A stretch of DNA of 64,000 nt from Clostridia bacterium. Lineage in GTDB: Bacteria > Bacillota > Clostridia > Christensenellales > UBA1242. Location: the NCBI GenBank assembly GCA_017453125.1, contig JAFTKS010000012.1:26632-90631 (forward strand), given 5' to 3'. The notes beneath the pieces were generated by a model. It saw only the letters and a program-made list of their open reading frames with translations, was not told the DNA's origin and did no database searches. Shown here one piece after another: positions 1,485 through 26,335 of this stretch. Position numbers and translations under genes: made by a program. Positions within the stretch are counted from its first letter, which is position 1. Each line of letters opens with the position of its first letter.

Positions 1485-1542
1485 AGTTATATATCTGGGG
1501 GTATATATAATAATATATTATTTTGTGATATATTTAATATTA

Positions 1543-2529: not shown

Positions 2530-2576
2530 GTGGTTATTATAGCATAAATGTAAATACATTACAATAGGGATTGAAA

Positions 2577-2622
2577 AAATCGCAATCACAAAGAAAAAAA
2601 CCTACCAGATTTCTCTGATAGG
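2577..2622 (-). repeat. Repeated terminator module, copy 3
   Basis: Differs from copy 1 only at two stem positions that form a compensatory pair (T-A to C-G). Confidence 0.85.
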
Positions 2623-2629
2623 CATTGTG

Positions 2630-2905: not shown

Positions 2906-2919
2906 ATATGCCTCTATGA

Positions 2920-3186
2920 TTATTTTACCATTCGCATATAGCGATAATAATGTGATGAACCATTTTCGGTTTCTATAAGTTGTGTTGAACCATCATCATA
3001 AGTAACAAGAAATACTGTTTTAGCGCTGTTATCAGAATTGTAAAGGTCGGCCATAACCATACCATCAAACCCGTCCATCATATCACCGACAGCAAGATTT
3101 ACAAACTTATCATCTTCATCTAAACCGTCTATTTCTTCGTAAATTTCAACACTTACAATTTTCTTTCTTTTAAACAACCAACACAT
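2920..3186 (-). CDS. Hypothetical protein
   Basis: 88-aa ORF packed 8 nt after res and 14 nt before the next gene. Confidence 0.6.
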   Translation of the reverse strand: MCWLFKRKKIVSVEIYEEIDGLDEDDKFVNLAVGDMMDGFDGMVMADLYNSDNSAKTVFLVTYDDGSTQLIETENGSSHYYRYMRMVK

Positions 3187-3194
3187 ATTTACCT

Positions 3195-6110: not shown

Positions 6111-6121
6111 TTTATTTTTCC

Positions 6122-6463
6122 TTAATAATTCAAAAATTCAATTTGAATTCTTTTATTACATCTATTCCATTCGTCAGTTAATTCTTGTTTGTGAGATAAA
6201 GTCCATTTATTAACTTCTTCAAGAGTTTTACGATTAAGTCTATTATCTCTATCAATTATTTCCCAAGTATCAATATAAATTTCACCAATTTTACGATTAT
6301 TTAAAGTAATATGAGCATGTGGCCTACTATGTTTTGCATTATCTTCATTGTAAACATAAATACTTAAAACGCTATTAAATCTCTGAACCCGGTCCCTCTG
6401 CTCAATAACTCTAAATCCATAAAGTAAGGATAATTTATGTAGTAAGTTTAAATCAATAAACAT
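6122..6463 (-). CDS. DUF4160-like small protein
   Basis: SIYVYNED..HSRPHAHI..GEIYID..W...ELTDEWN pattern typical of DUF4160; sits between mod and res. Confidence 0.7.
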   Translation of the reverse strand: MFIDLNLLHKLSLLYGFRVIEQRDRVQRFNSVLSIYVYNEDNAKHSRPHAHITLNNRKIGEIYIDTWEIIDRDNRLNRKTLEEVNKWTLSHKQELTDEWNRCNKRIQIEFLNY

Positions 6464-6465
6464 TA

Positions 6466-8499: not shown

Positions 8500-8513
8500 A
8501 GTGTTGCTCCTTA

Positions 8514-11123
8514 TTATATCACTTCAAAGTATATCATAAAATTGTTGGATTTTGTGCTATTTAGAGAAGATTTGTTTAAAATTTCATCAATTTTTTTCTT
8601 TGTTTCTCTATTTATCCTTGATTTCATAATGAATTCATTGTCTTTCATCTCAAATAATTGCTCTGAAAGTTCATTTATTTTTTGATTTTTTGCAAGTCCT
8701 TCACCAAAATTATCATTTGATGTAGAATTTCTTACTTTATCAATTTCTCTTTGCAAGTCTTTGATTTGCTTTTCAAATTTTGCTTTTTCATTTTCTGCCA
8801 ACATCTGTATATGAGAAATTGGTAATTTTGAACTCTTATCCATTTCAGCCTTTAATGGCTCTGTAATGGTCGAAATTATATTTTCAAAGGATTTATCCAA
8901 TTCTTCTTTAATTTGGTCTGGAATGTCAATATTTTCGCTAAAATCAACACATTCAAGATCAAGTATCTCATCACATTGTTCATTGTTAAGATAATTACCT
9001 TTATCATCAATACCAACACATCTTGTTGCCCTAGTCCAGTTAAAAGCATAAGACACATTTAAACCATAGCTTGCAATATATCCTTTCATTCCTTTAAGTT
9101 TTTGATTGTCAGACTTTAAAATCAATTTACTAGGTTTTAAAAAGAATGAATTTGTCAAATTACTCAACATACTTTGACAAGGTTCTGAACCTAATGTAAA
9201 TGGTCTATACTTTTCATCATTTACTAATGAGAATTTGAATGGATAAGCAAATGGATTTTTATTATGCCATGCGGTTTTTGCTTCAAATGTATTTTCATCT
9301 ATAAAGCTATCTTTATAGTAAAATCTAGCCAAATCTTTAACAATATCCTCTAATTCAGATACTTTCCTTTTAATGATTTCAGCCATATTTCTAGTGCTTT
9401 CAACCAATTTTCTATCAAAAGTATTGAAAAGAATATCATTAGATTGAGCCTTTATATCTTCAAGTTCTTGTTTAAATTCTTCACTAAGTTCAGAGAATTC
9501 GATTTGAACTTCTTTTTTCTTTCTTATACTTTCTAGTGTATCTTTGATATTTTCTTCTATTTCACCATCAACTGCACCAGATATAATTGTATCGCTAGCG
9601 CCAATGATATTATTTGATATATTTAATCTCTTATAAAACAACTCATACATTCTAACATCTGAAAAGTTTTCCGGACATATAAAGTTGATTACAAAAACAT
9701 CAGTTTGTTGGCCAATTCTATGACATCTTGATATTCTTTGTTCCATATCAAGCAATACTTGTGGAAAGTCATAATTAATAACAAAAGCACTTTCTTGCCA
9801 GTTTAAGCTCTCATTTCCTTTGTCTGTTGATATTAGAATACTTGGTTTATCACTTCTTAAGAATTTGTCAATTGGTTCATTATCAGTTGTCCCATTAAAG
9901 GAATTTACACTATAATCAGTCTTTGACATCAAAAGTTTGTGTAAGTGTTCTTGTGATTGAGTATTACCAGTAAATATAACACATTTCTTTGCAATACCTT
10001 TTCTATGAAATGTTGAGAATGTTTGTTGTAAAGCCCTTAAAAGATATTCATCTTTAGTATTAATTTGTATAGATGTGGCAATATTTAACATATCCCTTAT
10101 TTCTTTTGCTTCAGCAAGGTTTTCTTCAGTAGCGTGTTTATTTAATCTTGTATAAATACCACTTAATGTTTTTGATAAAGCATAAGCTGAAGATGATAAG
10201 GTTCCATAAAACATTAAAGATAGTTCATAAGGGTCCATTTCTGGAAATGCTTGTTTAGTAGGTTTTGCAACATATTTTTCTATTAGAGAATAAAGTTCTC
10301 TTTCTTTATCAGTCATATTGTAAATTTGAGTTAAAATTTGTCTTTCTGGTAATTTAGTTTCAACTTTAACTTGACTTCTTAAAGTTCTAAAAGTATATGG
10401 CGCAATTATATCCCTTAACTCTGGATAGTTTTCTGGTTTTCTAAAGTATTTTTTATGAAATTCATCATAATCAGTAAATACATTATCATCAATAAAATTG
10501 ATTAAACCAAATATATCATCTTCATTCTTTTGAATAGGTGTTGCAGTTAGTAAAATCTTTTTAGCATTTGGAATGATAGAAAGAATTGTATCTGCTGTCT
10601 TGTTCTCTTTTATTTTGTAAGTTCTAAATCTATGAGCTTCATCTAAAATGCAAAGTTGCCAATCAAACTCTCTAAATTTATCAGCATTTGCATTAATATA
10701 ATCATAAGTTGTAAGAACTATCCCCTTTTCAAACTTTTGTAAACTTTGAATGTAATTTTCTGATACTGCTCTTTCTTTAGTATCAAGAAGATAACAACGG
10801 AAATTAAAAGTTCTTATTATACTTCTTAACCAATTATCTACTGTTGGTGTTGGAACAACAACCAGTATTTTATTGTTATTTACATTGTATTGTGAAAGGA
10901 TTAACAATGCTTCCATTGTCTTACCAAGACCTGCCTCATCAGCAAGAATAAAACCTTTTACAAAAGGATTTGACAAAGCAAAAGTTGACGCATAGATTTG
11001 ATGTGAAAAAATCTCGATACCACTTCTTAAATATTGTGGCACCAAACTTTCCATTTTGCCTAGCGTCAAGTCTTTTTGCAATTTTTCAATTACATGATAA
11101 GCCTGTATTTTGTTATTTATCAC
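8514..11123 (-). CDS. SNF2-family helicase/ATPase
   Basis: ILADEAGLGKT, ILDEAHR, LLTATPIQ, INYDFP..MEQRISRCHRIGQ. Start moved to GTG 11123 (AAGGA RBS 7 nt upstream); track gives TTG 11150. Confidence 0.9.
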   Translation of the reverse strand: MINNKIQAYHVIEKLQKDLTLGKMESLVPQYLRSGIEIFSHQIYASTFALSNPFVKGFILADEAGLGKTMEALLILSQYNVNNNKILVVVPTPTVDNWLRSIIRTFNFRCYLLDTKERAVSENYIQSLQKFEKGIVLTTYDYINANADKFREFDWQLCILDEAHRFRTYKIKENKTADTILSIIPNAKKILLTATPIQKNEDDIFGLINFIDDNVFTDYDEFHKKYFRKPENYPELRDIIAPYTFRTLRSQVKVETKLPERQILTQIYNMTDKERELYSLIEKYVAKPTKQAFPEMDPYELSLMFYGTLSSSAYALSKTLSGIYTRLNKHATEENLAEAKEIRDMLNIATSIQINTKDEYLLRALQQTFSTFHRKGIAKKCVIFTGNTQSQEHLHKLLMSKTDYSVNSFNGTTDNEPIDKFLRSDKPSILISTDKGNESLNWQESAFVINYDFPQVLLDMEQRISRCHRIGQQTDVFVINFICPENFSDVRMYELFYKRLNISNNIIGASDTIISGAVDGEIEENIKDTLESIRKKKEVQIEFSELSEEFKQELEDIKAQSNDILFNTFDRKLVESTRNMAEIIKRKVSELEDIVKDLARFYYKDSFIDENTFEAKTAWHNKNPFAYPFKFSLVNDEKYRPFTLGSEPCQSMLSNLTNSFFLKPSKLILKSDNQKLKGMKGYIASYGLNVSYAFNWTRATRCVGIDDKGNYLNNEQCDEILDLECVDFSENIDIPDQIKEELDKSFENIISTITEPLKAEMDKSSKLPISHIQMLAENEKAKFEKQIKDLQREIDKVRNSTSNDNFGEGLAKNQKINELSEQLFEMKDNEFIMKSRINRETKKKIDEILNKSSLNSTKSNNFMIYFEVI

Positions 11124-11157
11124 TTGAAAGTCCTTTTTAAATTTTATCAATGTAAAG

Positions 11158-11180
11158 ATTATATCATATAAATATGATAT
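11158..11180 (-). promoter_or_regulatory. Extended -10 promoter overlapped by palindrome ATATCATAT-AA-ATATGATAT
   Basis: Minus strand TGA-TATAAT at 11166-11158; perfect 9-bp inverted repeat at 11161-11180, upstream of the SNF2 gene. Confidence 0.5.
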
Positions 11181-11202
11181 TTTGTCGATTTTTCAAAATT
11201 TT

Positions 11203-11976
11203 TTAATCTAATTTGAAAACTTTTTGTTGTGGATTAGCCTCAACAAATAAATCTATTAATTTGTCATATACTTTTTCAGCAAGTTCTTCTTGTGTAAATG
11301 CGTCAAGAATATAAGCACCGCCCAAGAAAGATATATATTTCATAATTTCATAGTTGAATTTAGAACTATAATTACCCCCATCTTCAACGAACTTTTTAAT
11401 TGCTCTTAAGATAGCAAGTCTAATTGTTTTAGAATTAGAGTAATTTCTGAATATCATTTTTTCTAATATTTCTGGTATTTGGAAACAGAAATCTGTAAGT
11501 TCGTAAGGATTTTCTAAAGTTTCATCATAAGTAAATTTTACTTGCCAGAATAATTTTGCAATTCCATGAAAGAACAAACTTCTTTTATATGTATATTTGA
11601 ATAACCATCTATATTCTAATCTTGTTGTTCCCTTATCTTCGCAAGGGTTCCATCTATACATCAAGAAATCATATAATTTTCCAAAACCAAGACTTACCCA
11701 TAGTCTTTCATCACATAAAACACTATCTGGTAAATGTTTTAGATTTTCATATAAGATTTTAGCATTTTCACAATCAGTTTCTTGTTTATTTTCTTTATTT
11801 GTAATAAGTTCAAAGTTTTTAATTGTATATTTTGAACTTGTAAAAGGTTCTTCCTCTTTGAAAAAGTCTTTTAACCATTCATTATTAGGACATTCAGACA
11901 TCACATTTTTTATAGTTGAAAGATTAGTTTTCAAAGCAATAATTTTATCTTCAGATAATATTTTAATAGCTTCCAT
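11203..11976 (-). CDS. DUF6339-like protein
   Basis: NAKILYENL..DERLWVSL..YRW..RSLFFHGIAKLFW..ENPYELT resembles DUF6339 from memory; coupled to the upstream gene by a TAATG overlap. Confidence 0.6.
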   Translation of the reverse strand: MEAIKILSEDKIIALKTNLSTIKNVMSECPNNEWLKDFFKEEEPFTSSKYTIKNFELITNKENKQETDCENAKILYENLKHLPDSVLCDERLWVSLGFGKLYDFLMYRWNPCEDKGTTRLEYRWLFKYTYKRSLFFHGIAKLFWQVKFTYDETLENPYELTDFCFQIPEILEKMIFRNYSNSKTIRLAILRAIKKFVEDGGNYSSKFNYEIMKYISFLGGAYILDAFTQEELAEKVYDKLIDLFVEANPQQKVFKLD

Positions 11977-12851
11977 TATTCTTCATCTCCTCCTGTTTTT
12001 GCAATATTTTGAATGTCAGTAATACCTCTACAAATTGTATTTTCCATAATCTTTTGAGATACTTCAAAAGAATTCATACCTTCTAAACTTTCAACATCAA
12101 AGTCTAAACCTAATTTAATCACAGCCTTTTTTAGTGCCCTAGCCCATCTTCTATCGCTATATTGCATAAAGAATTCTGGATTTTTAAGGTCCTCAAAGCA
12201 TTTCATAAGTGCTGGTATAATAATCATTGAGTGAATAATTGACTTTGTTGCTGGATTATTCATAGCAATCTTAAATTGATTAAATTCTTCTTCTGGTAAT
12301 TGAATATTGATTTTGTTGCCTGTGTTGTCTATTACAATACCAACTCTTTCTTTATCTTTAATTTCAGTAACCGCAAAGATTGACGGAACATTTGAAAGGT
12401 CATCATTTTCTTTTTCAACTGTTAGCGATACTTCTTGTCCTACAGCAAGGATATTTCCTTTTTCTAACTCAAATGATAAATCTCTATAATCTTTATTAAA
12501 TTTCTCATTAGAATATCCATTAATATTTTGTAATGCAATAATAAACGGACAAAAATATATTACACCTTCAACCTTGTCTGCTGGTATTTTATAAACAAGA
12601 CCTGCCTCATCAATATTGATTAGTTCTCTATAACTTGTAGCACCACACTCTATATGAACTACAAATCCTGCCTTTTTCTCATTAATAAGAGTTTTTATAC
12701 CCTTATTACTTAATATTGGTGTAAAGTTTACTATAATTTCACTTGGCGAACATTGTGTGGTAATTTCAATGTTAAAATCACTTTCAACATAGTCATTATT
12801 GAAAGTTGGCGCTAACACCGGATATGGATATAATTTAGCCTTTATACGCAT
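11976..12851 (-). CDS. Uncharacterised 291-aa protein (N-terminal YPYPVL motif)
   Basis: Long ORF overlapping both neighbours; beta-rich N-terminal half, helical C-terminal half. Confidence 0.8.
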   Translation of the reverse strand: MRIKAKLYPYPVLAPTFNNDYVESDFNIEITTQCSPSEIIVNFTPILSNKGIKTLINEKKAGFVVHIECGATSYRELINIDEAGLVYKIPADKVEGVIYFCPFIIALQNINGYSNEKFNKDYRDLSFELEKGNILAVGQEVSLTVEKENDDLSNVPSIFAVTEIKDKERVGIVIDNTGNKINIQLPEEEFNQFKIAMNNPATKSIIHSMIIIPALMKCFEDLKNPEFFMQYSDRRWARALKKAVIKLGLDFDVESLEGMNSFEVSQKIMENTICRGITDIQNIAKTGGDEE

Positions 12852-14760
12852 ACAATTTCACCCCCATAGTTGAATATTCTTCTACATCAAGTTTAAGGTC
12901 AACTGAGATTTGATTATCTTCTTCAAATCTAAAGTAACCAACTCTATTTCTTCTACAAATAAGTTCTGTATCGTTCTTTATTCCAAGAACATTTATAGCC
13001 ATTTTTTCATTTTGTTCAGCAATCTTAAAGATTTCAATAAATCCTTTAAAAGTTGTTACTGTTGGTGTGAAAAGCAATCTATAAAGTCTTTCTTTTTTAT
13101 TGATACAAATAATTCTTACTTGTTTAGATTTTACATAAATTGATTTTTGGCCATTCATTTCATCACTATCATCAAGACCAACATCTTCGGTATCTCTATC
13201 CCCTTGACCACTAGGTTTATGACCATCATGTTCAAAACCTTGTCCATCATCACCATCTACAACTGAACCTTCGGTTGCTTCGGTGCTTTCCAAATCATCA
13301 CCAAGTTCATCTGTTTCAAGGTTTGCAACAGATTCCACCTTTTTATGTATTTGAAAATCAATATCAATGATTTTATTTAAAGTTTCTTTTTCATGAACTT
13401 TTTGTTTACCTTCATCAATATCATTATCTTCATCTGGAAGATACTCACCTGCACCTTCAATATCAATCTCACCACTAAAAGCCTTTGACGCTTCTTCAGT
13501 AAGTTTATTTGTAATAAGTTCAAATAATTGTTTTAATAAACCTTTTGCCATTGTAGGATTTTTCTCATATCTTTCTGGCAACCACTTTGTATGTGCTGGA
13601 TTTTCTAAATTTCTCAAGAATGTATTAAGTTCATCACCACAAATAATACCAATTCCTGCAAATCTTAATGACGGACAAAGACCTGTTTTATCCATAATCT
13701 TCATTCCAGAACTTCTAATCATTGATATTTTGTTAGAACCATCATATCTAATTGCAAAAGCAAGTTTGATATTTCCTAATGAAATTCCTTGTGGATATTC
13801 AAATGGTAGATTTATCCATTCTGTCTTTTCATTAGATAGAATTTCATAGTTTTGAATAGTAGTTTCAGATAATGACTTTTTGTATGTTGCAACTACATCA
13901 GCAAGTGTGCTTTTGTTTACTCTATATGAGTTAACAACAATCTCAAGTTTATTATCCCAAATGGCCATTAAAAAGCCGTCTAGCACTTCAGCAATAATGC
14001 TAGATTTAAAATCTTCTGACATATTAGAAAAACCAGAAATAAAAATATCTGTTCCATATTCTTTTCTTGTGAAAGATTTGTCAAGGTTTAACATCTCTGG
14101 ACTATGTAAAATGTTGTAACCATTATCTATACCATAATAACCGGTTCCTTGAGAAATATTATCACTTTGGTCTTTATTTACGCCAAGTTTAAATGATGTA
14201 AGTTTACTTACACCTTTATTTGCTTTTAGACCATCTATATCATAAGTGCTATAAAATACCGTTCTAAAATCTGAACAAGCGAAAGGTGCATTTTTACCAA
14301 TACCAAAAGAACCACCTTTTGAGTCCCCCTTTTCAGGAGCTCCAGATGAATTAATTAAGTTATCCCAATCACTACTTGTTTTTGAGTTAGAACCTCTTAA
14401 ACCTGTGGTATTAAAATCACTTATTCTTAAGAAATTGATTTTAGGTGCATTTAATCTTTCTATTGCTCTTGTAAAGAAATTTTTAGATTTTTGGTTTGGA
14501 TTGCTTTCCCAATATTCTAAACACTTATTCAAAACATCATTAAATCCCTTTTTATCTGGAAATTCATCAGACGCAATAGAAAATGTATTGAATTCAACAA
14601 CAACCGTTTTCTTATCATGTGCTGCGTCTAATGAGTTTTGACAAATTTCTCTTGCCAAAGATTTTACAGGCGTATCTTTAAAAGTTTCAATACCTGAATT
14701 GTTTAGTCCTTGTTTTTCACCACCATTACTTGACGGAAAACACCATTTAATGTTACTCAT
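12835..14760 (-). CDS. GHKL (HSP90/MORC-like) ATPase domain protein
   Basis: SLAREICQNSLDA (motif I), ISDFNTTGL (motif II variant), GGSFGIGK (motif III); acidic linker then a beta-rich C-terminal domain; RBS AAGGAG. Confidence 0.8.
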   Translation of the reverse strand: MSNIKWCFPSSNGGEKQGLNNSGIETFKDTPVKSLAREICQNSLDAAHDKKTVVVEFNTFSIASDEFPDKKGFNDVLNKCLEYWESNPNQKSKNFFTRAIERLNAPKINFLRISDFNTTGLRGSNSKTSSDWDNLINSSGAPEKGDSKGGSFGIGKNAPFACSDFRTVFYSTYDIDGLKANKGVSKLTSFKLGVNKDQSDNISQGTGYYGIDNGYNILHSPEMLNLDKSFTRKEYGTDIFISGFSNMSEDFKSSIIAEVLDGFLMAIWDNKLEIVVNSYRVNKSTLADVVATYKKSLSETTIQNYEILSNEKTEWINLPFEYPQGISLGNIKLAFAIRYDGSNKISMIRSSGMKIMDKTGLCPSLRFAGIGIICGDELNTFLRNLENPAHTKWLPERYEKNPTMAKGLLKQLFELITNKLTEEASKAFSGEIDIEGAGEYLPDEDNDIDEGKQKVHEKETLNKIIDIDFQIHKKVESVANLETDELGDDLESTEATEGSVVDGDDGQGFEHDGHKPSGQGDRDTEDVGLDDSDEMNGQKSIYVKSKQVRIICINKKERLYRLLFTPTVTTFKGFIEIFKIAEQNEKMAINVLGIKNDTELICRRNRVGYFRFEEDNQISVDLKLDVEEYSTMGVKLYAYKG

Positions 14761-14772
14761 ATTTTTTCTCCT

Positions 14773-14835
14773 TTACTTCCATTGACCTGTTATAAGTAAA
14801 TATATATACCCTATACAAATGAATAAATATATCAT
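14773..14835 (-). CDS. 20-aa hydrophobic sORF MIYLFICIGYIYLLITGQWK
   Basis: Not in the track. AGGAG RBS overlaps the upstream TAG, 5 nt before ATG; its TAA overlaps the AAGGAG RBS of the ATPase gene. Confidence 0.45.
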   Translation of the reverse strand: MIYLFICIGYIYLLITGQWK

Positions 14836-14843
14836 ATTAACTC

Positions 14844-15065
14844 CTATAATAGTGTGAACTTATCTCCACCACCTATCTTTTGAAATTGCTTTTTAGCTTC
14901 AGCAATTTCACTCTCAAGAGCTTTAAAAATTTTATCTACATCTTTTTGTGTGTAATCATACACAGATGTATTAGATAAATTTCCAAGCAATCTAATCATT
15001 TCAAGAGCTTTATTTGTTCTATTCTCTGCCAAGCGCACAAATTTATCTCTTTTGCTTTCTGCCAT
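14844..15065 (-). CDS. Conserved 73-aa helical protein (KRDKFVRLAENRTNKALEMIRLLGNLSN)
   Basis: GGAGG RBS and a strong promoter upstream; I recall this family from methyltransferase and defence loci, function unknown. Confidence 0.8.
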   Translation of the reverse strand: MAESKRDKFVRLAENRTNKALEMIRLLGNLSNTSVYDYTQKDVDKIFKALESEIAEAKKQFQKIGGGDKFTLL

Positions 15066-15099
15066 TTTAATCCTCCAACATACAATTTTTGTTGTAATT

Positions 15100-15128
15100 A
15101 TACTAGCATAGCACTCTCAATTTGTCAA
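15100..15128 (-). promoter_or_regulatory. SigA-type promoter of the 73-aa/GHKL operon
   Basis: TTGACA (15128-15123), 17-nt spacer ending TGC, TAGTAT (15105-15100). Confidence 0.7.
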
Positions 15129-15149
15129 TACATTTCTAAAATATTTTCA

Positions 15150-15188
15150 TAATATTTTGAAAATGTTAGTAATATTTTGAAAATGTTA
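15150..15188. repeat. Direct repeat TAATATTTTGAAAATGTTA x2, period 20
   Basis: 15150-15168 and 15170-15188 are identical; located just upstream of the -35 element. Confidence 0.8.
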
Positions 15189-15207
15189 AATAAAAAGAGC
15201 CTATTGA

Positions 15208-18200
15208 TTAACTCAATAAGCCCTTGTTTTGTAGGTATCTAACAAATAAAACATCATTCATTTCCAATTTGTCTTTTAAGTATGATTTTAATTCATCAAT
15301 ATTCTCTGCTGGTATTGATTTTAAAACAAACAATGGTTCACCATTTCTCATTTGGTTTTCAGTTTGCATAACTTTGATTTTTGTTGAGAATTTATTAATA
15401 CAACTATATAGTAACCAATCAGTCCACTTGACATCATTTGGCAAGAACCCGTAGTTCTTAAATCTAGAAGCAACAATAAATCCGTCTTTATCCATAGTAG
15501 ATAATAATACATTTTCAGCCACTTGTGCATTGTATTTGTTTAGTTTTGACTTCTCAACAGATATAATTGTTTCTTTATCTTTAAAGACATACTCATCTTT
15601 CATTTCATTTATATATTGAGTTATAGAAGCAAGATATAATCTATTTTCAGTAATATAAGATGTAAAATCAGAAATTTTTATTTCGTCATGTTGTCTTAAG
15701 AAATCCGTTATTCTATCTGCTCTACTTAAGATTTTTACACCTTTATTTGCAAAATATGGTCTTAAGAACTCAAAATCATTAGCAAAAAGACATTTTATAA
15801 TGCTAAACAATTTGAATTGACTATCAATATTATATTTAGACATAAGGTCTGAATGTTTTAAATCTAAAATCATTAATAGTTCGTGTGAGCTATGTGATTT
15901 ATTGTCTGAACAAAGATTTATTATAGATGATTTTAGCAAATTTTTATCTTCATCAGTCATATTCAAATTATCTGCGTGCATATAAGATTTTTGACAACAT
16001 ATAATTTCATCACCCGACAAAGTATTATATAAAATACTGTCCATAACTTCTGGAAATTCATCTTTTAATTCATCAAAAGTAACTTCTCTATTATCTTTAA
16101 TGTAAGATATAATTCTTTCTCTAACATGACCAATTTCAACGCCTTTATTTGCAAAATATGGTCTGCGGAATTCATATTGTTCTTGTAAGTAATATTGAAT
16201 TATACTAAACAACTTAAATTGATTGTCTATATTGTATTTTTGCAATAGTGATTTATTATGTTTTGTTAAATAATCAAACAATACATGAGTGTTAGAATAT
16301 TCATTTTCTAACAATAGCTCATCAATTGCCAATGCAAATATCTCACTATCAGACTTATCCATGTTTAATTTATCAACATGAATGTATGTTCCAGATAATT
16401 TTATAATATTTCCATTTGTTAATCCTGTAATAATAACACTATATGGAACATTTTTAAATTCATTCATAACTTGGTCAATTGACACTTCTCTTTCAGCCTG
16501 TTTTACATAATTATAAATATCATTATAGATACTTGTAGATTCCCCTGTTTTACTAATATAATCTCTAGAGAAGAAAAGTTTATTATAATAAAGTTCTTTT
16601 AAAACACCTTGTAAATGATATTTATTATCTATGCCCTCTGCCTTAAGTTCATTTTCAAAAGTTGCATATAACGTGTTTGTAAGGAAAATATCTCTATTAC
16701 TTTCTTGTATATAGTTATAAATTTTGTTTGCTAATTCATCAGAAATGTATTTTTCTTTCTTTAAGGCATATTTACCCTTTCCAACCAAATAACAACTAGC
16801 AACTATTCTTCCATATAAAGCTCTATCATTTTCTGGTATTTGATTATCATTAAAGGTTTTAGCATATTCAGCCCTAAATATATCTAAATCTTCTTTTTCA
16901 TATATTCTAATTCCATTTGGAAATGCCTTTGCAAGTATTTGTTTATATTTAAGAAGCAATCCCATTCTGTTTCTAGAATAAACTGTTCCGTTTTGTTTAA
17001 AATCTAATCTTAATATTTTTTCAATAATATCTAACGGTATTCTAACACCAATACTTTCTAGATATTTAGAACACTCATGAATAGTTGTTTTAAATTGTTC
17101 TTCAGTTAAAACACCTTCAATTCTATCAACAATACTTAATATCTCTTTATACCAATCAGTATTGTCTATAAAGTAATAAATATCAAGATCTTCAAGATAT
17201 TCAATATCATCACACTCTTCTTTTTTAAGTAAGTAATAAAAGAGCTCTGGATAAAAGTTAAAAATTGAACCCACATCATCTATTGTCATATACCATTCAT
17301 TTTTAACAAATGCTCTGATTAGTCTGGTCAATGTGCCATTTGCGGAATTATAGAATGAAGCAAACAATTCATCATATTTTTCTTCAATTTGCTGAATACC
17401 TTGTCTTGTATTACCATACATTTCACCAATTCGTTTTAGATTTTGACCTTGTGATCTTAACAACAATACTTCAACGTATTTTTCCCATTTTGAATTAGGA
17501 ACATTAGACGCATTTACTCTTTGTAGCAATAACTTAAATTTCTCATTTAAGAATGCTGGTAAACTTTGTTGTAATACTTTTACATAGTTTGTTATTACCT
17601 GATTATAATCAATTAAGAATGCTAAATTTTCTTCTTTTTCATTTATCAAATCTTCTACGGTATCATATTTTACTAGCGCTGGTAAGACCTCAAAAGGTAA
17701 AATATGTTTAATCTTTGCTTTTTTGTTATCATTATGTATATTTGATAATAATTGCTTTAAGTTCTTGCAGAAATCAGCAACTTCTTTTTTCTTTCTCAAT
17801 TCTTCAACATACATATCTAATAATTCTGTTAAAGAATTCTCATCATTTAAAACTTCCAAAAATTCTTCTTCTGAAAATAAATTTATAAAACCAAAAAGAA
17901 CATTATAATCTTCTTCATTAATAAATTTATCAATATCTGGATTAATCAGTTCTATATTTACATTATAATCTGGCACAAGTTCTTTAATTAAATTATTAAA
18001 TGAAATATAAGAATTTAAGCCATTTTTTGCTAGATATTGCAAACATTCCACACCTAGACCTTTTACAACTTTAATCCACTTTTCTCTATCTTTTAAAAGA
18101 TATTTTTTAAGGTCAAGTGTTTTTCCTTTCTGTTCACTTTCTGGTGTATTTTGTATTAAAAGTTGTTGCACAACACTTTTTAAAACAAACTTATCTGTTT

Positions 18201-18693
18201 GTAAAAATTCTTTAAGTTTTGCCATATTAAATGAACTAATATTAAATGTTTGTTGTAAAAAAGTATAGCAATCTCTTATATCAATTCTAGCTTCATCATT
18301 TTCATCAAAGAATTGGTAAAGAGCCTTCAACATTTTATATTTACTAACTCTAATAGTCTTTGTGCAATAGTAGTAATCTTCTGCATTGTCAGTTGGTCTT
18401 ACCCTATTATATTTTCTAGTTTGTATTTCTTCAGATTGTGGTTCTCTCACTATCTCATTATTAAAAGTTATATCAGATGTATCGAACTCATCTATTTTGT
18501 TTTGAACCAATTGAGATGTAATCATCTCTTTATTATCAAACAAAGAAATAAAATATGAGTATGAAAAAGATGTAATAGTTTCAAATCTTGGTTTTAAAGA
18601 TTTATATAAAAAACTACTACTTTGTGGTCCTACACAATTTTCATTCATAAAATCTAACGTAGCTTGTAATATTTGTAGTTCGATTTCACCCAT
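15208..18693 (-). CDS. Large (~1160 aa) protein with a central sigma70 region-4-like HTH and duplicated C-terminal domains
   Basis: LLRSQGQNLKRIGEMYGNTRQGIQQIEEK matches the sigma70 r4 HTH pattern; internal repeat KYNID.QFKLFSII...EF.RPYFANKGV 134 aa apart. Start at ATG 18693 (GAGGAG RBS). Confidence 0.75.
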   Translation of the reverse strand: MGEIELQILQATLDFMNENCVGPQSSSFLYKSLKPRFETITSFSYSYFISLFDNKEMITSQLVQNKIDEFDTSDITFNNEIVREPQSEEIQTRKYNRVRPTDNAEDYYYCTKTIRVSKYKMLKALYQFFDENDEARIDIRDCYTFLQQTFNISSFNMAKLKEFLQTDKFVLKSVVQQLLIQNTPESEQKGKTLDLKKYLLKDREKWIKVVKGLGVECLQYLAKNGLNSYISFNNLIKELVPDYNVNIELINPDIDKFINEEDYNVLFGFINLFSEEEFLEVLNDENSLTELLDMYVEELRKKKEVADFCKNLKQLLSNIHNDNKKAKIKHILPFEVLPALVKYDTVEDLINEKEENLAFLIDYNQVITNYVKVLQQSLPAFLNEKFKLLLQRVNASNVPNSKWEKYVEVLLLRSQGQNLKRIGEMYGNTRQGIQQIEEKYDELFASFYNSANGTLTRLIRAFVKNEWYMTIDDVGSIFNFYPELFYYLLKKEECDDIEYLEDLDIYYFIDNTDWYKEILSIVDRIEGVLTEEQFKTTIHECSKYLESIGVRIPLDIIEKILRLDFKQNGTVYSRNRMGLLLKYKQILAKAFPNGIRIYEKEDLDIFRAEYAKTFNDNQIPENDRALYGRIVASCYLVGKGKYALKKEKYISDELANKIYNYIQESNRDIFLTNTLYATFENELKAEGIDNKYHLQGVLKELYYNKLFFSRDYISKTGESTSIYNDIYNYVKQAEREVSIDQVMNEFKNVPYSVIITGLTNGNIIKLSGTYIHVDKLNMDKSDSEIFALAIDELLLENEYSNTHVLFDYLTKHNKSLLQKYNIDNQFKLFSIIQYYLQEQYEFRRPYFANKGVEIGHVRERIISYIKDNREVTFDELKDEFPEVMDSILYNTLSGDEIICCQKSYMHADNLNMTDEDKNLLKSSIINLCSDNKSHSSHELLMILDLKHSDLMSKYNIDSQFKLFSIIKCLFANDFEFLRPYFANKGVKILSRADRITDFLRQHDEIKISDFTSYITENRLYLASITQYINEMKDEYVFKDKETIISVEKSKLNKYNAQVAENVLLSTMDKDGFIVASRFKNYGFLPNDVKWTDWLLYSCINKFSTKIKVMQTENQMRNGEPLFVLKSIPAENIDELKSYLKDKLEMNDVLFVRYLQNKGLLS

Positions 18694-18791
18694 AGAAAAG
18701 TCTCCTCTCAAATCATTATAACATACAAATTCCTAATTTTCACCATTGTATGACAAAATTTTAAAAAAAATTCTAAAAATAGTTTTAACTA

Positions 18792-19256
18792 TTAATAGAA
18801 TGCTTTTTCTAAATATTTAATTATATCATTTTTTATCCTTCTAATTTTCTTAATATTCGGTTGATTTTTCAATTTGTTTTGTATAAATCTTTTCTGTTGT
18901 TCAGATAATTTTATAGGTGTAATATGTAGTTCTATAGAATGTATAACATCATCTAATAAATATTTATCAGAAACAATATCATAATCCTTTTTATTCCTTT
19001 CACATTCTCGTTTTAAAAATTCAAGTTCACTTTCATTTGGTTCTGGAACAAAAAACTCAAGATTAGAAAAATAATCATACAAACAATCTTCTATTTGTTT
19101 ATCATCAACTTTATCTTGCCCCTTTGCTATTTTAAACATTTCATCAATCAATTCTTCTTTTGTAATGACAGAATATCTTTCAACACCAAATTTTCTAGCT
19201 TCATTTCTTAATTTATGGATAGGTGTATCCATTAATTTTTTTCTTAAATCACTCAT
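18792..19256 (-). CDS. Protein with an N-terminal Rho_N/HeH-like motif
   Basis: TPIHKLRNEARKFGVERYSVITKEELIDEM resembles the Rho N-terminal helix-extension-helix. Confidence 0.55.
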   Translation of the reverse strand: MSDLRKKLMDTPIHKLRNEARKFGVERYSVITKEELIDEMFKIAKGQDKVDDKQIEDCLYDYFSNLEFFVPEPNESELEFLKRECERNKKDYDIVSDKYLLDDVIHSIELHITPIKLSEQQKRFIQNKLKNQPNIKKIRRIKNDIIKYLEKAFY

Positions 19257-19266
19257 ACAAATCCTT

Positions 19267-19824
19267 TTATGGTTTTATAACCACTACATCAATTCCCTTT
19301 TTCTTTGCTTTCTCAATGGTTGATTTAGTTCCACCACCCAAGCCATTATATAAAGCAATTACAAGAGATGAGTTGTTTAGCATATATTCATTTCTCTCAA
19401 TCATGCAACCGTCAACATATTCGTCATAAATACAACGAACACCGTCTAATTGCTTAACAAGTTTTCTATATCTATCAATTTGTGCTTGTGGCCACCTGTC
19501 ATATTGGTTTTTACAAGGTATTGCTCCAATCAATCTAATATTCGGATACTTCTTTTTAAGTTCTAATACAATTTCAGCGCAAATCATATCAAATCCAAGA
19601 GCCATACCACAAAGAAATGTTGTATATCCTCTTTGTATAGCTTTCTCAATTTCTGCCTTGGCATTTTCTTTCATTTCAATACAACGTGGATCTTTCTCAT
19701 TAAATTTCCAAGGCAACTTCTGTGCCCTATGACCTGTAAAGCATGCAGTCACTTCACTCATTAAATCAAAGATTTCTTGGCATTTGTCAATTATATCTTC
19801 AATTGATTTTCTTCCAAACAACAT
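19267..19824 (-). CDS. SLOG superfamily protein, YpsA/DUF1273 type
   Basis: TACFTGHR, FLCGMALGFD, AIPC..Q, ERNEYML, GGTKSTIEKA. Confidence 0.85.
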   Translation of the reverse strand: MLFGRKSIEDIIDKCQEIFDLMSEVTACFTGHRAQKLPWKFNEKDPRCIEMKENAKAEIEKAIQRGYTTFLCGMALGFDMICAEIVLELKKKYPNIRLIGAIPCKNQYDRWPQAQIDRYRKLVKQLDGVRCIYDEYVDGCMIERNEYMLNNSSLVIALYNGLGGGTKSTIEKAKKKGIDVVVIKP

Positions 19825-19976
19825 AACAAAACTCCCTTTTGATTGTTTTTATATACCTATTATAGCACAAAAAAGTCAAAAAACAACATTTTTGATTGTT
19901 TTTATGTGCTTATATTAAAAATTACTTATGCTAAAATATACTTACATTAAAACAATCGTTTAAGTTTGGAGTTTTT

Positions 19977-20219
19977 ATGAAATTAAATGAAGCTGTTGCT
20001 ATTAGAATTAGAGAAATATTAAAAGAAAGGAATATGACACAATATCGTTTAGAACAAAATGCTGGTATTACTCACAATACTATGCTAAGTTTAATGAATG
20101 GTAGATACAAAAGTTGTAATTTAACAACTGTTGTCTTGATTATTAGAGCTTTTGGTATGACAGTTTCAGAGTTCTTTAACCACCCTGTTTTTGAAAGTGA
20201 TGACTTAATTGTCGAATAA
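19977..20219 (+). CDS. XRE-family HTH regulator
   Basis: ILKERNMTQYRLEQNAGITHNTM..L.NG pattern. Confidence 0.85.
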   Translation: MKLNEAVAIRIREILKERNMTQYRLEQNAGITHNTMLSLMNGRYKSCNLTTVVLIIRAFGMTVSEFFNHPVFESDDLIVE

Positions 20220-20279
20220 TTCTAGTTTCCCTATATGAATAACCCCTATTTATTGCTAAAATATATAGGGGTTTTATTT

Positions 20280-20522
20280 ATGAAAATTACTGAAAGTGTA
20301 TCTTATAGAGTGAAAGAAATTTTAGAAGCAAGAAAGATGACACAATATCGCCTAGAACAACTGACAGGAATTAGTCATAATACAATGAGTTCCCTATTGA
20401 ATTGTAGATATGAGAGTTGCAATCTTAAAACAATTTTTATAATAATTGAAGCATTGGATTTGTCTATTCATCAGTTTTTTAACAGCCCAGCATTTGAGTT
20501 TTTTAATTTGGATATTGAGTAA
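20280..20522 (+). CDS. XRE-family HTH regulator, tandem paralog
   Basis: 44/80 aa identical to the preceding gene when started at ATG 20280. Confidence 0.85.
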   Translation: MKITESVSYRVKEILEARKMTQYRLEQLTGISHNTMSSLLNCRYESCNLKTIFIIIEALDLSIHQFFNSPAFEFFNLDIE

Positions 20523-20583
20523 TCAAGTTGCGTATATAGAGAAAAAGTCAACACTCAAAATGGTGTTGACTGTTTTTTCATGA

Positions 20584-21042
20584 CTATTTATATGCTATAC
20601 CCAATTTATCATAAACGAATTGTCGATATTCTTCAAGCCTATCTTGTGACTGTTTGCAAAACTTTACAATTAAATTTATGATATATATCATTCCATTTTT
20701 ATAGCTTTCCTTATCAAATTCATCAAAATCATTTAGATTAATTTGTTTCTGATTGATTACTATATCAAAAAACAAATTGTTTTTTCCATACTCATCAACA
20801 ACATAATCAGTCCCCACAATAAATGCTGTGCTCCAAGAACAAAAATTATAATGTCCTTGAATAACACTTAGAATATTATCAATTCTTCTTTTTACACTTT
20901 TTAAGCAGTCCAATCTATAAATATCTTCTTTTCTATTAAGTATTAGGTCTATTCTCTGTTTTAAACATCTTACCCTATACTCTGTTTTTGTTTTAGTTAA
21001 AAAACATTCATTTAACATATCTTCACCAAACATATTTATCAA
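20584..21042 (-). CDS. Hypothetical protein
   Basis: 152-aa ORF, AAGGAG RBS, bidirectional terminator at about 20543-20579 downstream. Confidence 0.6.
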   Translation of the reverse strand: MINMFGEDMLNECFLTKTKTEYRVRCLKQRIDLILNRKEDIYRLDCLKSVKRRIDNILSVIQGHYNFCSWSTAFIVGTDYVVDEYGKNNLFFDIVINQKQINLNDFDEFDKESYKNGMIYIINLIVKFCKQSQDRLEEYRQFVYDKLGIAYK

Positions 21043-21076
21043 TCTCCTTTTATAATTGATAGATATATTATGTCAC

Positions 21077-21105
21077 AGGTCGTTGTATCAAAATCAGATA
21101 CATCG
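21077..21105. promoter_or_regulatory. Dyad operator CGnTGTATC-N7-GATACAnCG, copy 2
   Basis: 27/29 nt identical to 157-185; about 35 bp upstream of the 20584..21042 start. Confidence 0.6.
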
Positions 21106-21273
21106 AAAGATAAAATCTTGTCTAAAAAGTGCAATTTATTGTCTAAATAAAGAAAAAACAGCACATAATTTGCTGTTTTTCAATGATACTTTTAATTTTA
21201 ACTCCTTTTATTAGATTTTTGTATTAGATATTTGTGGCAGTATCAAACCCTTAATTTAGACCATTGATTTGGT

Positions 21274-21921
21274 CTATGGTCCTATTATAGCAATAACGGG
21301 TGCCATAGCTGCACCCATATTATTTACATCATTAATTCCAAAATCTGTTACCTTCCCAAACGTCGCATTAGAAATACATATTTCTGTAACACCTGCACCC
21401 AAAACCATACAACCAGCTCCAGTAACAGTCCACTGACTAACAGGTGGACGCTGGTTTCCAAGCTCAAGAGGAAATCTATACTGCCTTTCCGCCGAACTAA
21501 AATGACTACCCGTTGCACAAGCTACCTTATCAAAATACCCACCATCAACAAATGTTGCACCGACAGCAATCGCTTCTGCCATTGTACTACAAGCACCATA
21601 CAAACCCAAATATGAAATATCAAACTCTCTTGCCGTAAAACTCGAAGAAATTATCTGATTAAGCAAATCCCCTGATATCAATAAATCAATATCTTTCGAC
21701 TTAATACCTGCATTATCTATAGCCCCTAATATACAATGTTCTAACATTTTTCTCTCGGCTCTTTCATAAGACTTCTCTCCAAAAGTATCATCTTTTAAAA
21801 TAAAATCAAAATATTTTGAAAAATTACCAGCACCTTCTTTTTCTCCAACAATTGCGTAATTTCCCAAAACACCAACAGGATTTGTAAAACTAATAGTTTG
21901 ATTACCTAATTTTTTGCCCAT
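21274..21921 (-). pseudogene. spoVAD: 5' portion of stage V sporulation protein AD, truncated
   Basis: SYEKAE-like SYERAERK, GDLLNQIISS, GLYGACSTMAE, SSHF-like GSHFSSAERQYRFPLELG, QWTVTGAG, NMGAAMAP; then VIAIIGP-stop. The conserved continuation is absent in all three frames; full SpoVAD is about 330-340 aa. Confidence 0.85.
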
Positions 21922-21927
21922 AACCAC

Positions 21928-22374
21928 CTACAAAAATAAATATACAAGACCTACAATAATAGATATTATTGTTCCATTTACAATAACAGGCCCCGCAACA
22001 CTAAACATCTTCACACACAAACCAAATATTATTCCCTCTTTTTTAAATTCAATAGCAGGACTTGTTATTGAATTTGAAAAACCGGTTATAGGAACAATTG
22101 AACCAGCACCCGCAAAAACTCCAATTCTATCATAAACACCTAAACCTGTTAATAAACTTGCTATAAAAATAAGAATAATCAACATCCAAGCATTTGCAGA
22201 ATCAATACTCATTTTGGGGAAAATAGCCATCAAAGCATCATTAATTCCTTGACCAATCATACAAATTACACCACCAACTATATACGCATATATTAAAGTT
22301 GGAAAATTTTTTGTCTTTGGTTTTTTAGCATTGACATAATCATTATATTTCTTATTTCGCTCTTGAACATTCAT
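21928..22374 (-). CDS. spoVAC: Stage V sporulation protein AC
   Basis: GGVICMIGQ, GVYDRIGVFAGAGSIVPITGFSNS, KMFSVAGPVIV. Confidence 0.95.
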   Translation of the reverse strand: MNVQERNKKYNDYVNAKKPKTKNFPTLIYAYIVGGVICMIGQGINDALMAIFPKMSIDSANAWMLIILIFIASLLTGLGVYDRIGVFAGAGSIVPITGFSNSITSPAIEFKKEGIIFGLCVKMFSVAGPVIVNGTIISIIVGLVYLFL

Positions 22375-24868: not shown

Positions 24869-25591
24869 TTAGTTTAGTTTTTGCTTTAATTTTTCCAATA
24901 TTTTGTTTTCAAGTCTACTAATTTGCACTTGCGAAACACCCAATTCGCTCGCAATTTCTTTTTGTGTTTTATCTCGAAAATACCTCAGTATTATAATTTT
25001 CTTTTCTCTGTCGGGCAAACTTTCAATTAATTTATATAATACTTGATTGTCAACAAAATCATTGGACTCATCTTCACTTTCAATTTTATCAATCAAATAT
25101 TGTTCTTTTCCACCATCGTCACCAACCAATGTAAACAAAGAAACTGGCTTATTTGATGAATCCATAGCATACACAACCTCCTGCGCACTTAATTCAAACT
25201 CTTTTGCAATAACATCAATCGATGGCGTTTCTTCAAATTCATTTAAATATTTTTCAATAAATTTGTTTATCTTTAACGCTAATTGTTTTGTACTACGAGA
25301 TACTTTAATTATGCCATTATCCCTAATAAAACGCTTAACTTCTCCAGCAATCATTGGAACTGCATATGTTGAAAACTTAACCCCAAAACTTTCATCAAAG
25401 TTATTAATGGCCTTCAAAAAACCCAAACTACCCAATTGATAAAGATCGTCAAACTCTATCCCTTTATTCAAATACCTTTTTATCACACTTTTTATAAGCG
25501 GAGAATTTTCCGCAATCAACCGCTCTTTTGCCTGAGAATCTCCCGACTGTGCCCTTTCTAATAATCTATTTGTTTCAAAAGCATCTAGCAT
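24869..25591 (-). CDS. sigF: Forespore sigma factor SigF
   Basis: DDLYQLGSLGFLKAINNFD..KFSTYAVPMIAGE; TQKEIASELGVSQVQISRLE; follows spoIIAA-spoIIAB. Confidence 0.92.
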   Translation of the reverse strand: MLDAFETNRLLERAQSGDSQAKERLIAENSPLIKSVIKRYLNKGIEFDDLYQLGSLGFLKAINNFDESFGVKFSTYAVPMIAGEVKRFIRDNGIIKVSRSTKQLALKINKFIEKYLNEFEETPSIDVIAKEFELSAQEVVYAMDSSNKPVSLFTLVGDDGGKEQYLIDKIESEDESNDFVDNQVLYKLIESLPDREKKIIILRYFRDKTQKEIASELGVSQVQISRLENKILEKLKQKLN

Positions 25592-25593
25592 TT

Positions 25594-26016
25594 CTACCTC
25601 GATATATTTTTAATCAACGTCACCCTAGTTCCTTTATCCTTATACGACTCAACAATCATTTTATCAACAAAGCCTTCCATAACAGTAAATCCCATTCCAC
25701 TTCTCTCCATATCTGGTTTACTTGTGTAAAACGGCTCTTTTGCCCTATCTATATCTTCAATCCCTATACCATTATCTATTATCTCAATTTTAACCTCGTC
25801 TTCTTTTAGAAAACAATTAATAGTAATTTTCCCAATTTTTTTATCATAAGCGTGCACAACTGCATTAGTAACAGCTTCACTTACGGCAGTTTTGATATCT
25901 GATATTGATTCAATATCTTTAACCACATTAGAACAAAAACTTGCTACCGCCAACCTTGCAAACGATTCATTTTCACTTAAAGAATCAAAAGTTAAATTCA
26001 TTTCATTTATGTACAT
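25594..26016 (-). CDS. spoIIAB: Anti-sigma F factor
   Basis: SENESFAR, IKTAVSEAVTNAVVHAY, DNGIGI, ERSGMGFTVME. Confidence 0.95.
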   Translation of the reverse strand: MYINEMNLTFDSLSENESFARLAVASFCSNVVKDIESISDIKTAVSEAVTNAVVHAYDKKIGKITINCFLKEDEVKIEIIDNGIGIEDIDRAKEPFYTSKPDMERSGMGFTVMEGFVDKMIVESYKDKGTRVTLIKNISR

Positions 26017-26026
26017 AATTCACCTC

Positions 26027-26335
26027 TTAGGATATTTTAGGCATTATTTCATATATGCCAGACATTTTCATAATTTTTTCTATGGTAGGATTGGGATTCA
26101 TAATATAAATGCCTTTCGACCTACTTTTTAAATTCTTGTATCTACCTATCAACACACCTATTCCAGTACTATCCATAAATTCCAAATTTTCAAAATCAAA
26201 AATAACTTCGTTAAACTTTTCTTTCAAAAATGTACTATCCAAAATTTCTCTAGTGAACTTTGCAGTATATTCATCAAGTTCTCCTTGCAAATATATATGT
26301 AATACATTATTTATATTTTTGCATTCCACATTCAT
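26027..26335 (-). CDS. spoIIAA: Anti-sigma F factor antagonist (STAS)
   Basis: LQGELDEY, FMDSTGIGVLIGRYK. Confidence 0.93.
   Translation of the reverse strand: MNVECKNINNVLHIYLQGELDEYTAKFTREILDSTFLKEKFNEVIFDFENLEFMDSTGIGVLIGRYKNLKSRSKGIYIMNPNPTIEKIMKMSGIYEIMPKIS

Follow-up and report, generated by a model that had tools for sequence, protein, structure and literature searches.

In the genome of an uncultured gut bacterium related to Christensenellales (genome G000; 1.35 Mb in 22 contigs), the sporulation gene spoVAD is interrupted by a predicted integrative conjugative element (ICE) of ~50 kb that carries an island of antiphage-type defense genes. The 64-kb stretch of DNA analyzed here ("the window," part of contig C7) contains the 5′ part of the broken gene together with the right-hand end of the element, and the remainder lies to the left of the window and on a second contig, C8. 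The element was inserted by a large serine recombinase (LSR) at a CC dinucleotide within spoVAD, it has a self-transmissible backbone, its site can be found scarlessly empty, its ends recur in several hosts, and related elements repeatedly occupy the same target. We consider it probable that the spoVAD site serves as a conserved "safe harbor" for a horizontally moving element. Below we set out the evidence and weigh this explanation against programmed excision during sporulation, decay of a dead-end insertion, and assembly artifact.

The spoVAD fragment in the window encodes 212 SpoVAD residues ending in NNMGAAMAP, after which the element supplies seven unrelated residues (VIAIIGP) and a TAG stop codon. 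A previous sequence-only reading of this DNA had placed the end of the SpoVAD similarity after NMGAAMAP, which the extent of the Pfam match and the junction itself both bear out, and had put the junction at about 21296 to 21297; a break does exist there, but the true crossover is 3 bases off, at 21299 to 21300. No further match to SpoVAD or SpoVAE was found within the 64-kb window, in keeping with the earlier claim that a third of the protein and spoVAE lie outside it, and a search of the whole genome located both on C8. There, positions 200 to 328 of the SpoVAD profile match C8:111313-111696 (−), ~550 nt from the contig end, and spoVAE is found at C8:110959-111285 (−; NCBIfam spore_V_AE, above cutoff). 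The insertion therefore parts the 5′ two-thirds of spoVAD, still behind spoVAC, from the last third and spoVAE. Both spoVAD halves, spoVAC, and spoVAE are without stops in G000, and rejoining the halves computationally at the CC yields a 1017-nt, in-frame spoVAD of 338 amino acids (aa). The coding frame of a sporulation gene is interrupted here, and precise excision would rebuild it, as in known gene-intervening elements of the skin, SPbeta, vfbin, vrin, gin, or yin type. The far end of the element, where the sequence-only reading had proposed to look for the 3′ half, spoVAE, and an LSR gene, has all of these on C8; the objection that a 3′ half or a recombinase might be lacking there fails because C8 holds both.

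The CC dinucleotide (GG on the + strand), which forms the first two bases of a Pro codon, comprises the only bases common in frame to attL, attR, and an attB-bearing contig observed in the gut-metagenome run X2. The arms of the attachment sites were derived by comparing attL and attR with intact spoVAD genes of the same genus and with four other split genomes. In gene sense, the conserved element arms are P, which ends in ...TTTATGGTCCATAGTTGACAATGGCT, and P′, which begins with CGTTATTGCTATAATAGGACCATAG..., and the P′ arm is kept in genomes G032, G016, G043, and G047. The reconstructed attP is ~50 bp long and imperfectly palindromic, with 15 of 30 arm positions symmetric and the outer GGACCATA matched perfectly; measured against random sites from the window, this dyad symmetry ranks within the top 1.3%, and attB shows no comparable symmetry. 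With a nonpalindromic CC crossover and an imperfectly palindromic attP, the sites, whose reconstruction the earlier reading had called for, have the anatomy to be expected of a large serine integrase. An inverted repeat near the junction (TAGACCA-N6-TGGTCTA), which had also been singled out, is indeed present but statistically ordinary, given that 7-bp inverted repeats with 3- to 10-nt loops occur at 2.2 per kb in the window; it is also absent from the attL ends of G032 and G016, and we ruled it out as a feature of the attachment site.

The rejoined gene, proposed earlier as something to look for in sequencing reads, was found in run X2 as a 3271-nt contig. On this contig, the C8 side (L007:11659-11694) continues unbroken into the window from position 21307 onward, with ...GCAGAC-GG on the C8 side leading directly into window position 21301 and beyond; there are zero mismatches except the expected attB base, which occupies the sole position beside the CC where attL and attR differ. 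Run X2 also contains contigs with attR and attL. The mean word depths were 7.3 for the attB-bearing contig, 5.2 for attR, 5.8 for attL, and 6.9 for the flank; these are contig-wide means, and most of the attB contig consists of right flank shared with the attL form, so that they permit no more than a rough estimate, by which the site is unoccupied in a minority of the X2 population, perhaps one-quarter. Both attL and attR also occur, at 100% identity, in independent Logan contigs of runs X1 and X2. The ends of the element are further present, at ~99% identity, in runs X3, X6 (goat gut), X57, and X45, where they adjoin spoVAD flanks that have diverged; the attR end in X3, for instance, has 3 differences in 557 nt. 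The flanks diverge from the crossover outward (e.g., ...PAAMRTLVE and ...PAAADTLCK), indicating that the element has recently moved horizontally into four or more other host species and has used this dinucleotide each time. Runs X57 and X58 do not contain the empty site; they have the ICE end joined to the spoVAD of another species.

Recombinase genes lie at the left end of the element on both contigs. C7:1-1239 (−), 26.6 kb to the left of the window, encodes the N-terminal 413 residues of an A-type LSR (LSR-A) with Resolvase (PF00239), Recombinase (PF07508), and Zn_ribbon (PF13408) domains and a visible YIRLSR motif. The last ~550 nt of C8, on the same strand as the spoVAD 3′ half and 90 nt from attR, encode an LSR C terminus (DUF4368), and between the two contigs the catalytic, recombinase, zinc ribbon, and DUF4368 domains of an LSR are all present. 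A single LSR gene across the break between the end of C8 and the start of C7, where a 4-nt overlap is consistent in frame, was rejected on the basis of Logan contigs and of two genomes of the same genus with the same split (G032 and G026). The Logan contig that extends the C8 tail and the one that extends C7:1 leftwards differ, converging on a shared 30-mer at C7:640-669, and both genomes have two complete, paralogous LSR genes in tandem beside attR. Their distal, A-type LSRs (566 and 572 aa) are 71 to 73% identical to the head of C7, and their proximal, B-type LSRs (553 and 549 aa) are 45 to 47% identical to the tail of C8. From the contig geometry and this layout we infer that G000 likewise has two tandem LSRs (LSR-A and LSR-B). 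The gap would therefore be ~1.6 kb, made up of the rest of LSR-A and most of LSR-B, and the contigs break here because of 30-mers common to the two paralogous genes; the missing ~1.6 kb was not found elsewhere in the genome bin.

Immediately upstream of LSR-A is a gene for a DUF6870 protein of 108 aa. This pairing of DUF6870 with an LSR occurs in ~70 of 80 related LSR loci (described below), beside spoVAD or not, which makes DUF6870 a module that goes with this recombinase clade and a candidate for an accessory or directionality factor. We found no mention of the DUF6870 family in a full-text literature search, and no attL-proximal gene is common to the related elements as a candidate for a directionality factor. 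The DUF6870 protein of G032 gave a weak TnpW-like signal.

The same position in spoVAD is a recurrent target. In a set of 61 relatives, a split of spoVAD at profile position ~200 to 206 is present in G016, G032, G026 (with the 3′ half alone), G043, and G047 (with the 5′ half alone). Of 401 genomes sampled evenly from the order, 331 have spoVAD, and in 10 to 12 of these (~3%), belonging to at least four families, the gene is split at this site (17% of the sampled genomes are without spoVAD). In G043 and G290 both halves are present on one contig, 21 kb apart, and the G043 element has a single A-type LSR, polysaccharide-type cargo, and no conjugation genes. Scanning an alignment of A-type LSRs against the genomes of 185,579 species gave 80 loci, about 37 of which have a spoVAD 3′ half, from its first residues, directly downstream or past a second LSR, usually with spoVAE next. 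These spoVAD-associated loci are found in Christensenellales-type metagenome-assembled genomes (MAGs), Oscillospiraceae, Acutalibacteraceae, Lachnospiraceae, Intestinimonas, Faecousia, and the cultured Agathobaculum butyriciproducens DSM 100391. In a tree of the LSRs the association with spoVAD is strongly clustered (16 changes, compared to 30 in shuffles), and the related elements at the site range from 4.7 to 50 kb. The smallest (L063, positions 3068 to 7741 in an Intestinimonas sp. MAG) is ~4.7 kb long and carries a methyl-accepting chemotaxis protein gene, DUF6870, and an LSR, in spoVAD orientation.

Some other irregular SpoVAD matches are of a different kind. Genomes of family f36 with two SpoVAD matches were rejected as splits, as these reflect an in-frame insertion within one open reading frame (ORF); in G072, G158, G220, G237, G269, G285, G316, and G434, from three genera, SpoVAD is encoded by an ORF of 400 to 477 aa with the insertion at about profile position 174. 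In G344 (family f36, genus g29), profile positions 1 to 179 and 246 to 329 match on different contigs, which may reflect either another break point or contig ends. ImmeDB, a catalog of gut mobile elements, lists, as sporulation cargo of island GI175 of Roseburia intestinalis L1-82, "SpoVAEb, SpoVAD and a Cro/C1 HTH gene" (PMC6907783); this gene list resembles that of a spoVAD-integrated element and may stem from one whose limits were misplaced.

The element comprises C8:111688-112245, the ~1.6-kb gap, and C7:1-47929. From the recombinase end, its genes encode a C5 DNA methylase, a DnaG-type primase, two BspA-LRR surface proteins, and a DUF3846 protein, followed by a VirB4-like ATPase (Mbov_0397 family; E value, 9.2e-111), a conjugation membrane protein of the MMCAP2_0566 family, and a 1475-aa protein, and then by a VirD4-type coupling protein (T4SS-DNA_transf; E value, 1.3e-48), a MobL relaxase (E value, 1.6e-26), and a sigma-70 region 4 protein. 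A set of genes for self-transfer is thus present alongside an integrase with recognizable LSR domains and defined junctions (attL and attR, which cross over at CC, plus the attB seen in run X2). On this gene content we classify the element as an integrative conjugative element that carries a defense island. A prophage was rejected, as there are no capsid, terminase, or tail genes and a full conjugation set is found instead. The earlier proposal of a mobile element with defense genes inside spoVAD holds, and PADLOC confirms the cargo; its figure of more than 21 kb of accessory DNA was right in kind but underestimated an element of ~50 kb, and its parallel with elements of the skin and SPbeta type is not borne out, since the element has a full conjugation module and is no prophage remnant. 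A second conjugation module of the Mycoplasma ICE type is encoded elsewhere in the G000 genome (C21:75685-84681), with VirB4 and VirD4 proteins 39 to 41% identical to those of the ICE. The features of the window and of the element ends are given in Table 1. The type III restriction-modification system is recognized by both PADLOC (E values, 4.8e-295 and 1.5e-188) and Pfam, and the A, B, and C proteins of PDC-M33 match with PADLOC E values of 1.3e-191, 1.6e-91, and 2.1e-63, the C protein being a DUF6339 protein. A homolog of the Cro/C1-type helix-turn-helix (HTH) regulators in the G032 element is 49% identical. The 152-aa ORF that follows attL is not kept at the corresponding end of related elements.

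Table 1. Features of the spoVAD region, the element ends, and the cargo. Positions are those of the window unless a contig or locus is named
Feature	Position	Strand	Details
CC crossover dinucleotide	21299..21300	−	GG on + strand; partner C8:111686-111687
attL	21269..21330	−	Host arm B 21301-21330, CC, and element arm P′ 21269-21298; P′ = CGTTATTGCTATAATAGGACCATAGACCAA in gene sense
Inverted repeat TAGACCA-N6-TGGTCTA	21258..21277	.	22-42 bp from crossover; overlaps outer edge of P′ arm
16-mer GTATTAGATATTTGTG	21221..21236	+	~65 nt inside attL; second copy at C7:1237-1252, opposite strand
Terminator-like hairpin	21153..21181	−	11-bp stem and T run; ~120 nt inside attL, in spoVA reading direction
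Bidirectional terminator-like hairpin ATTTCGCA...TGCGAAAT	L007:11734-11757 (C8:111733-111756)		T runs on both sides
spoVAD, 5′ fragment	21274..21927	−	217-aa ORF; Pfam PF07451 positions 1-205 of 329, E 1.5e-83
spoVAC	21928..22374	−	Intact; heads the interrupted spoVAC-AD-AE operon; Pfam PF03862; NCBIfam spore_V_AC, 162.8 bits
spoIIAA-spoIIAB-sigF operon	24869..26335	−	NCBIfam spIIAB above cutoff; SigF/SigG family and spore_II_AA best matches
Right-hand 21.3 kb of ICE (cargo end)	1..21298	.	Continues left to C7:1, then C8:111688
Type III restriction-modification	3195..8499	−	REase_III 3195-6110, DUF4160 6122-6463, MTase_III 6466-8499
SNF2 helicase, DrmD-like	8514..11150	−	Pfam SNF2-rel_dom; PADLOC DrmD, E 6.7e-92
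PDC-M33 A/B/C candidate defense system	11203..14760	−	12835-14760, 11976-12851, 11203-11976
1167-aa protein	15208..18711	−	No Pfam or PADLOC family match
YpsA/SLOG-family protein	19267..19824	−	Pfam PF06908, E 1.1e-25; 60% identical to homolog in G032 element
Two Cro/C1-type HTH regulator genes	19977-20219, 20235-20522	+	Pfam HTH_26/HTH_3; point toward attL
152-aa ORF	20584..21042	−	First sizeable element gene after attL; no Pfam or PADLOC match

Several sequence signals at the element ends bear on how recombination might be controlled. The 16-mer listed in Table 1 occurs exactly twice in the 1.35-Mb genome, the second copy lying in the leader of LSR-A just past an extended −10 element; both copies are kept in the G032 element, and the one at attL also in G016. 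The 16-mer is likely to be an operator through which a single regulator would act on both ends of the ICE. LSR-A itself is preceded by this housekeeping-type extended −10 (TGGTATAAT) and a palindromic leader. The strong hairpin inside attL would halt spoVAC-spoVAD′ transcripts ahead of the element genes, and the bidirectional hairpin on C8 lies between the stop codon of the proximal recombinase gene and attR. With terminator-like hairpins at both junctions, transcripts that start at the spoVA promoter are unlikely to extend into element genes, and those of the LSR operon are unlikely to reach spoVAD-3′ and spoVAE. A regex search for sigma-G or sigma-F promoters upstream of spoVAC returned no matches, a result that is uninformative in such AT-rich DNA.

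These observations can be brought together in the explanation that we regard as probable, that of an ICE using spoVAD as a conserved landing site. The A-type LSR recombines the ~50-bp attP with the highly conserved NNMGAAMAP-coding stretch, with strand exchange at the CC of the Pro codon. This DNA is probably favored as a target for being nearly invariant in sporulating Clostridia and dispensable in vegetative growth, which would make it a safe harbor across a broad range of hosts. Carriers would be deficient in SpoVAD and, by polarity, in SpoVAE, and their spores would be poor in dipicolinic acid (DPA) unless the ICE leaves; excision would be governed by the repressor/operator circuit of the ICE, within its transfer cycle, and not by the sporulation program. 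A conserved landing site is the simpler reading because ICE copies with ends ~99% identical are found in the spoVAD of several host species, and a simple coupling of excision to spoVA transcription is disfavored by the terminators at both junctions and the housekeeping-type promoter of LSR-A.

A number of observations weigh against this account. No contig with attP (the circular form) was found in runs X1, X2, X3, and X6, a search confined to assembler contigs, which drop rare forms, and because no circular junction was seen, the activity of the ICE in this host rests on the empty site. That site could equally represent a never-colonized co-resident strain, which in these data is not distinguishable from excision. 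Every carrier examined has both halves of spoVAD as well as spoVAC and spoVAE in intact form, and all of four Agathobaculum isolate assemblies that have diverged by 3 to 5% retain the LSR-spoVAD junction. Mini-elements of 4.7 to 8 kb contain little beyond DUF6870 and an LSR in spoVAD orientation. Host and ICE proteins are diverged to similar extents between G000 and G032 (67 to 79% and 52 to 80% identity, respectively), which also fits a long vertical residence that is hard to square with a costly knockout of a spore gene. The intact halves, the mini-elements, and the persistence in Agathobaculum resemble what is seen in domesticated intervening elements and leave room for programmed excision.

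Programmed excision timed to sporulation would make this a true spoVAD-intervening element that leaves either in the forespore or, ahead of septation, in the sporangium, rebuilding spoVAD-spoVAE for DPA uptake; the circle would be kept in the nondividing spore and either reintegrate at germination or be lost from part of the progeny. The layout, with a recombinase at one end, scarless excision, and both halves intact, is identical to that of skin, SPbeta, and gin, and the reduced elements, the persistence of the split gene in Agathobaculum, and a possible codivergence of ICE and host also speak for this reading. The Agathobaculum LSR appears to be under purifying selection, with those of the listed differences that lie in it falling mostly on every third base, and the host keeps sigF, spoIIAA, spoIIAB, spoIVA (C7:101564-102274), and gpr, the gene for the protease specific for small acid-soluble spore proteins (SASPs; C19:89164-89727). 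Against this, spoVA transcription cannot simply enter the element genes past the terminator-like hairpins inside attL and before attR, LSR-A has a promoter of the housekeeping type, the simple sigma-F/G pattern searches gave nothing usable, and the element is plainly a horizontally moving ICE. The spoVA operon is, moreover, a sigma-G forespore operon in Bacillus subtilis and Clostridioides difficile, and on this established basis spoVAD would not be a gene expressed in the mother cell; to our knowledge, every sporulation gene-intervening element described so far lies in a gene of the mother cell, whose rearranged genome is not inherited. The sequence-only reading was correct to stress that a forespore target departs from these precedents. 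On balance, we consider programmed excision unlikely. Carried further, it would make the spoVAD-targeting LSR elements the first gene-intervening elements of a bacterial "germ line": excision in the forespore, or just before septation, would rebuild spoVAD-spoVAE for DPA import, circles would survive in the nondividing spore, where the primase and relaxase of the ICE could even replicate them, and at germination the integrase would act without its directionality factor to reintegrate the element. This whole chain of steps is doubtful to a slightly greater degree, but if true, it would constitute a reversible, heritable DNA switch tied to dormancy, with the ICE riding inside spores from host to host.

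We find it very improbable that the insertion is a dead end in a lineage that is losing sporulation, with spoVAD simply broken and the element unable to excise. The reduced genome, the share of genomes in the order that are without spoVAD, and our failure to detect the alpha/beta-type SASP family (PF00269) in G000, where it is missing or too divergent or short for the first-look filter, could be read in this way; the empty site with identical flanks in the same species, the stop-free halves and neighboring genes, an LSR ORF that is intact as far as it can be read with all its domains, the presence of SpoIVA and GPR, and near-identical ICE copies in other hosts, which speak for a recent arrival, argue against it. 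An artifact of assembly or binning, in which the halves derive from different organisms or the junction is chimeric, is conceivable for a 22-contig metagenome bin that has the halves on different contigs and breaks inside the recombinase region, but it is the least credible explanation of all, given attL and attR at 100% identity in independent contigs of X1 and X2, the essentially mismatch-free X2 contig that joins both halves, a break accounted for by shared 30-mers, and the same architecture on single contigs in G043 and G290.

The element combines traits of several known systems. Tn5397 (TndX) and Tn4451/Tn4453 (TnpX) are clostridial conjugative or mobilizable transposons whose LSRs have a DUF4368-type C terminus and a 2-bp crossover; they have relaxed or other target choice and a different conjugation backbone. 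Mycoplasma ICEs use a DDE transposase and not an LSR. The VirB4 ATPase and the transmembrane conjugation protein of the present ICE nonetheless match NCBIfam models built on those elements (Mbov_0396/0397 and MMCAP2_0566), VirB4 with 371 bits, below the equivalog cutoff of 590; the host here, in contrast, has a cell wall and sporulates. SCCmec resembles the element in having two tandem LSR genes (ccrA and ccrB) in one operon at its end, and the best NCBIfam matches of LSR-A include CcrB and CcrC, albeit below threshold and far below the family cutoffs; SCCmec differs in integrating at the 3′ end of rlmH without destroying that gene and in its lack of conjugation genes. Among intervening elements, skin in sigK (SpoIVCA; B. 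subtilis and C. difficile) and SPbeta in spsM (SprA/SprB) likewise have an LSR gene at the end that adjoins the 3′ half of the target, excise without a scar, and exist in full-size to reduced forms, but they are prophages or prophage remnants in mother-cell genes and have a directionality factor under sporulation control (PMC4191935, PMC5025042). Here, too, a recombinase gene lies beside the junction, as the C8 tail and the complete tandem LSRs of G032 and G026 demonstrate. A further parallel in general form is gin, a 28.6-kb element in gerE of Bacillus cereus ATCC 10987 that has the recombinase GirC and excises specifically during sporulation (PMC5595907). It is not a prophage, splits a sporulation ORF, has more than one serine recombinase, and reconstitutes the gene by precise excision (PMC5595907); in contrast to the ~50-kb ICE in the forespore gene spoVAD, it resides in a mother-cell gene and has no conjugation module.

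Beyond the element, the window continues with host sporulation genes. Between sigF and spoVAC lies a 783-aa, Asn/Thr-rich, low-complexity ORF (22454-24805, +) with a signal-like N terminus and a Cys-rich block; it has no Pfam match, and G032 and G016 have ORFs of 704 to 750 aa in the same place.

We found no description of spoVAD as an integration target or as a target of intervening elements in a full-text search of the literature. The element described here is the largest member at this site so far, being a complete ICE with two predicted tandem LSRs and a defense island, and it adds the direct sight of an empty site and of near-identical copies in several hosts. Our findings point to a family of LSR elements, ranging from 5-kb minimal units to a 50-kb ICE, that targets a single codon of a forespore gene in gut Clostridia belonging to several orders. 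Split spoVAD genes of this kind are likely to have been misannotated as pseudogenes or as "cargo" of genomic islands, and the recombinase with its pair of att sites would provide a natural integration system with a broad host range for gut Clostridia that are otherwise intractable. Two possibilities follow for the biology of these organisms. First, a sizeable fraction of gut spore formers may carry a conditional knockout of DPA uptake, which, if true, would bear on spore resistance, on transmission from host to host, and on the status of "spore former" as it is deduced from genomes. Second, if excision is instead a programmed event in the cells to which the genome is passed on, these elements would represent a new kind of developmental DNA rearrangement.

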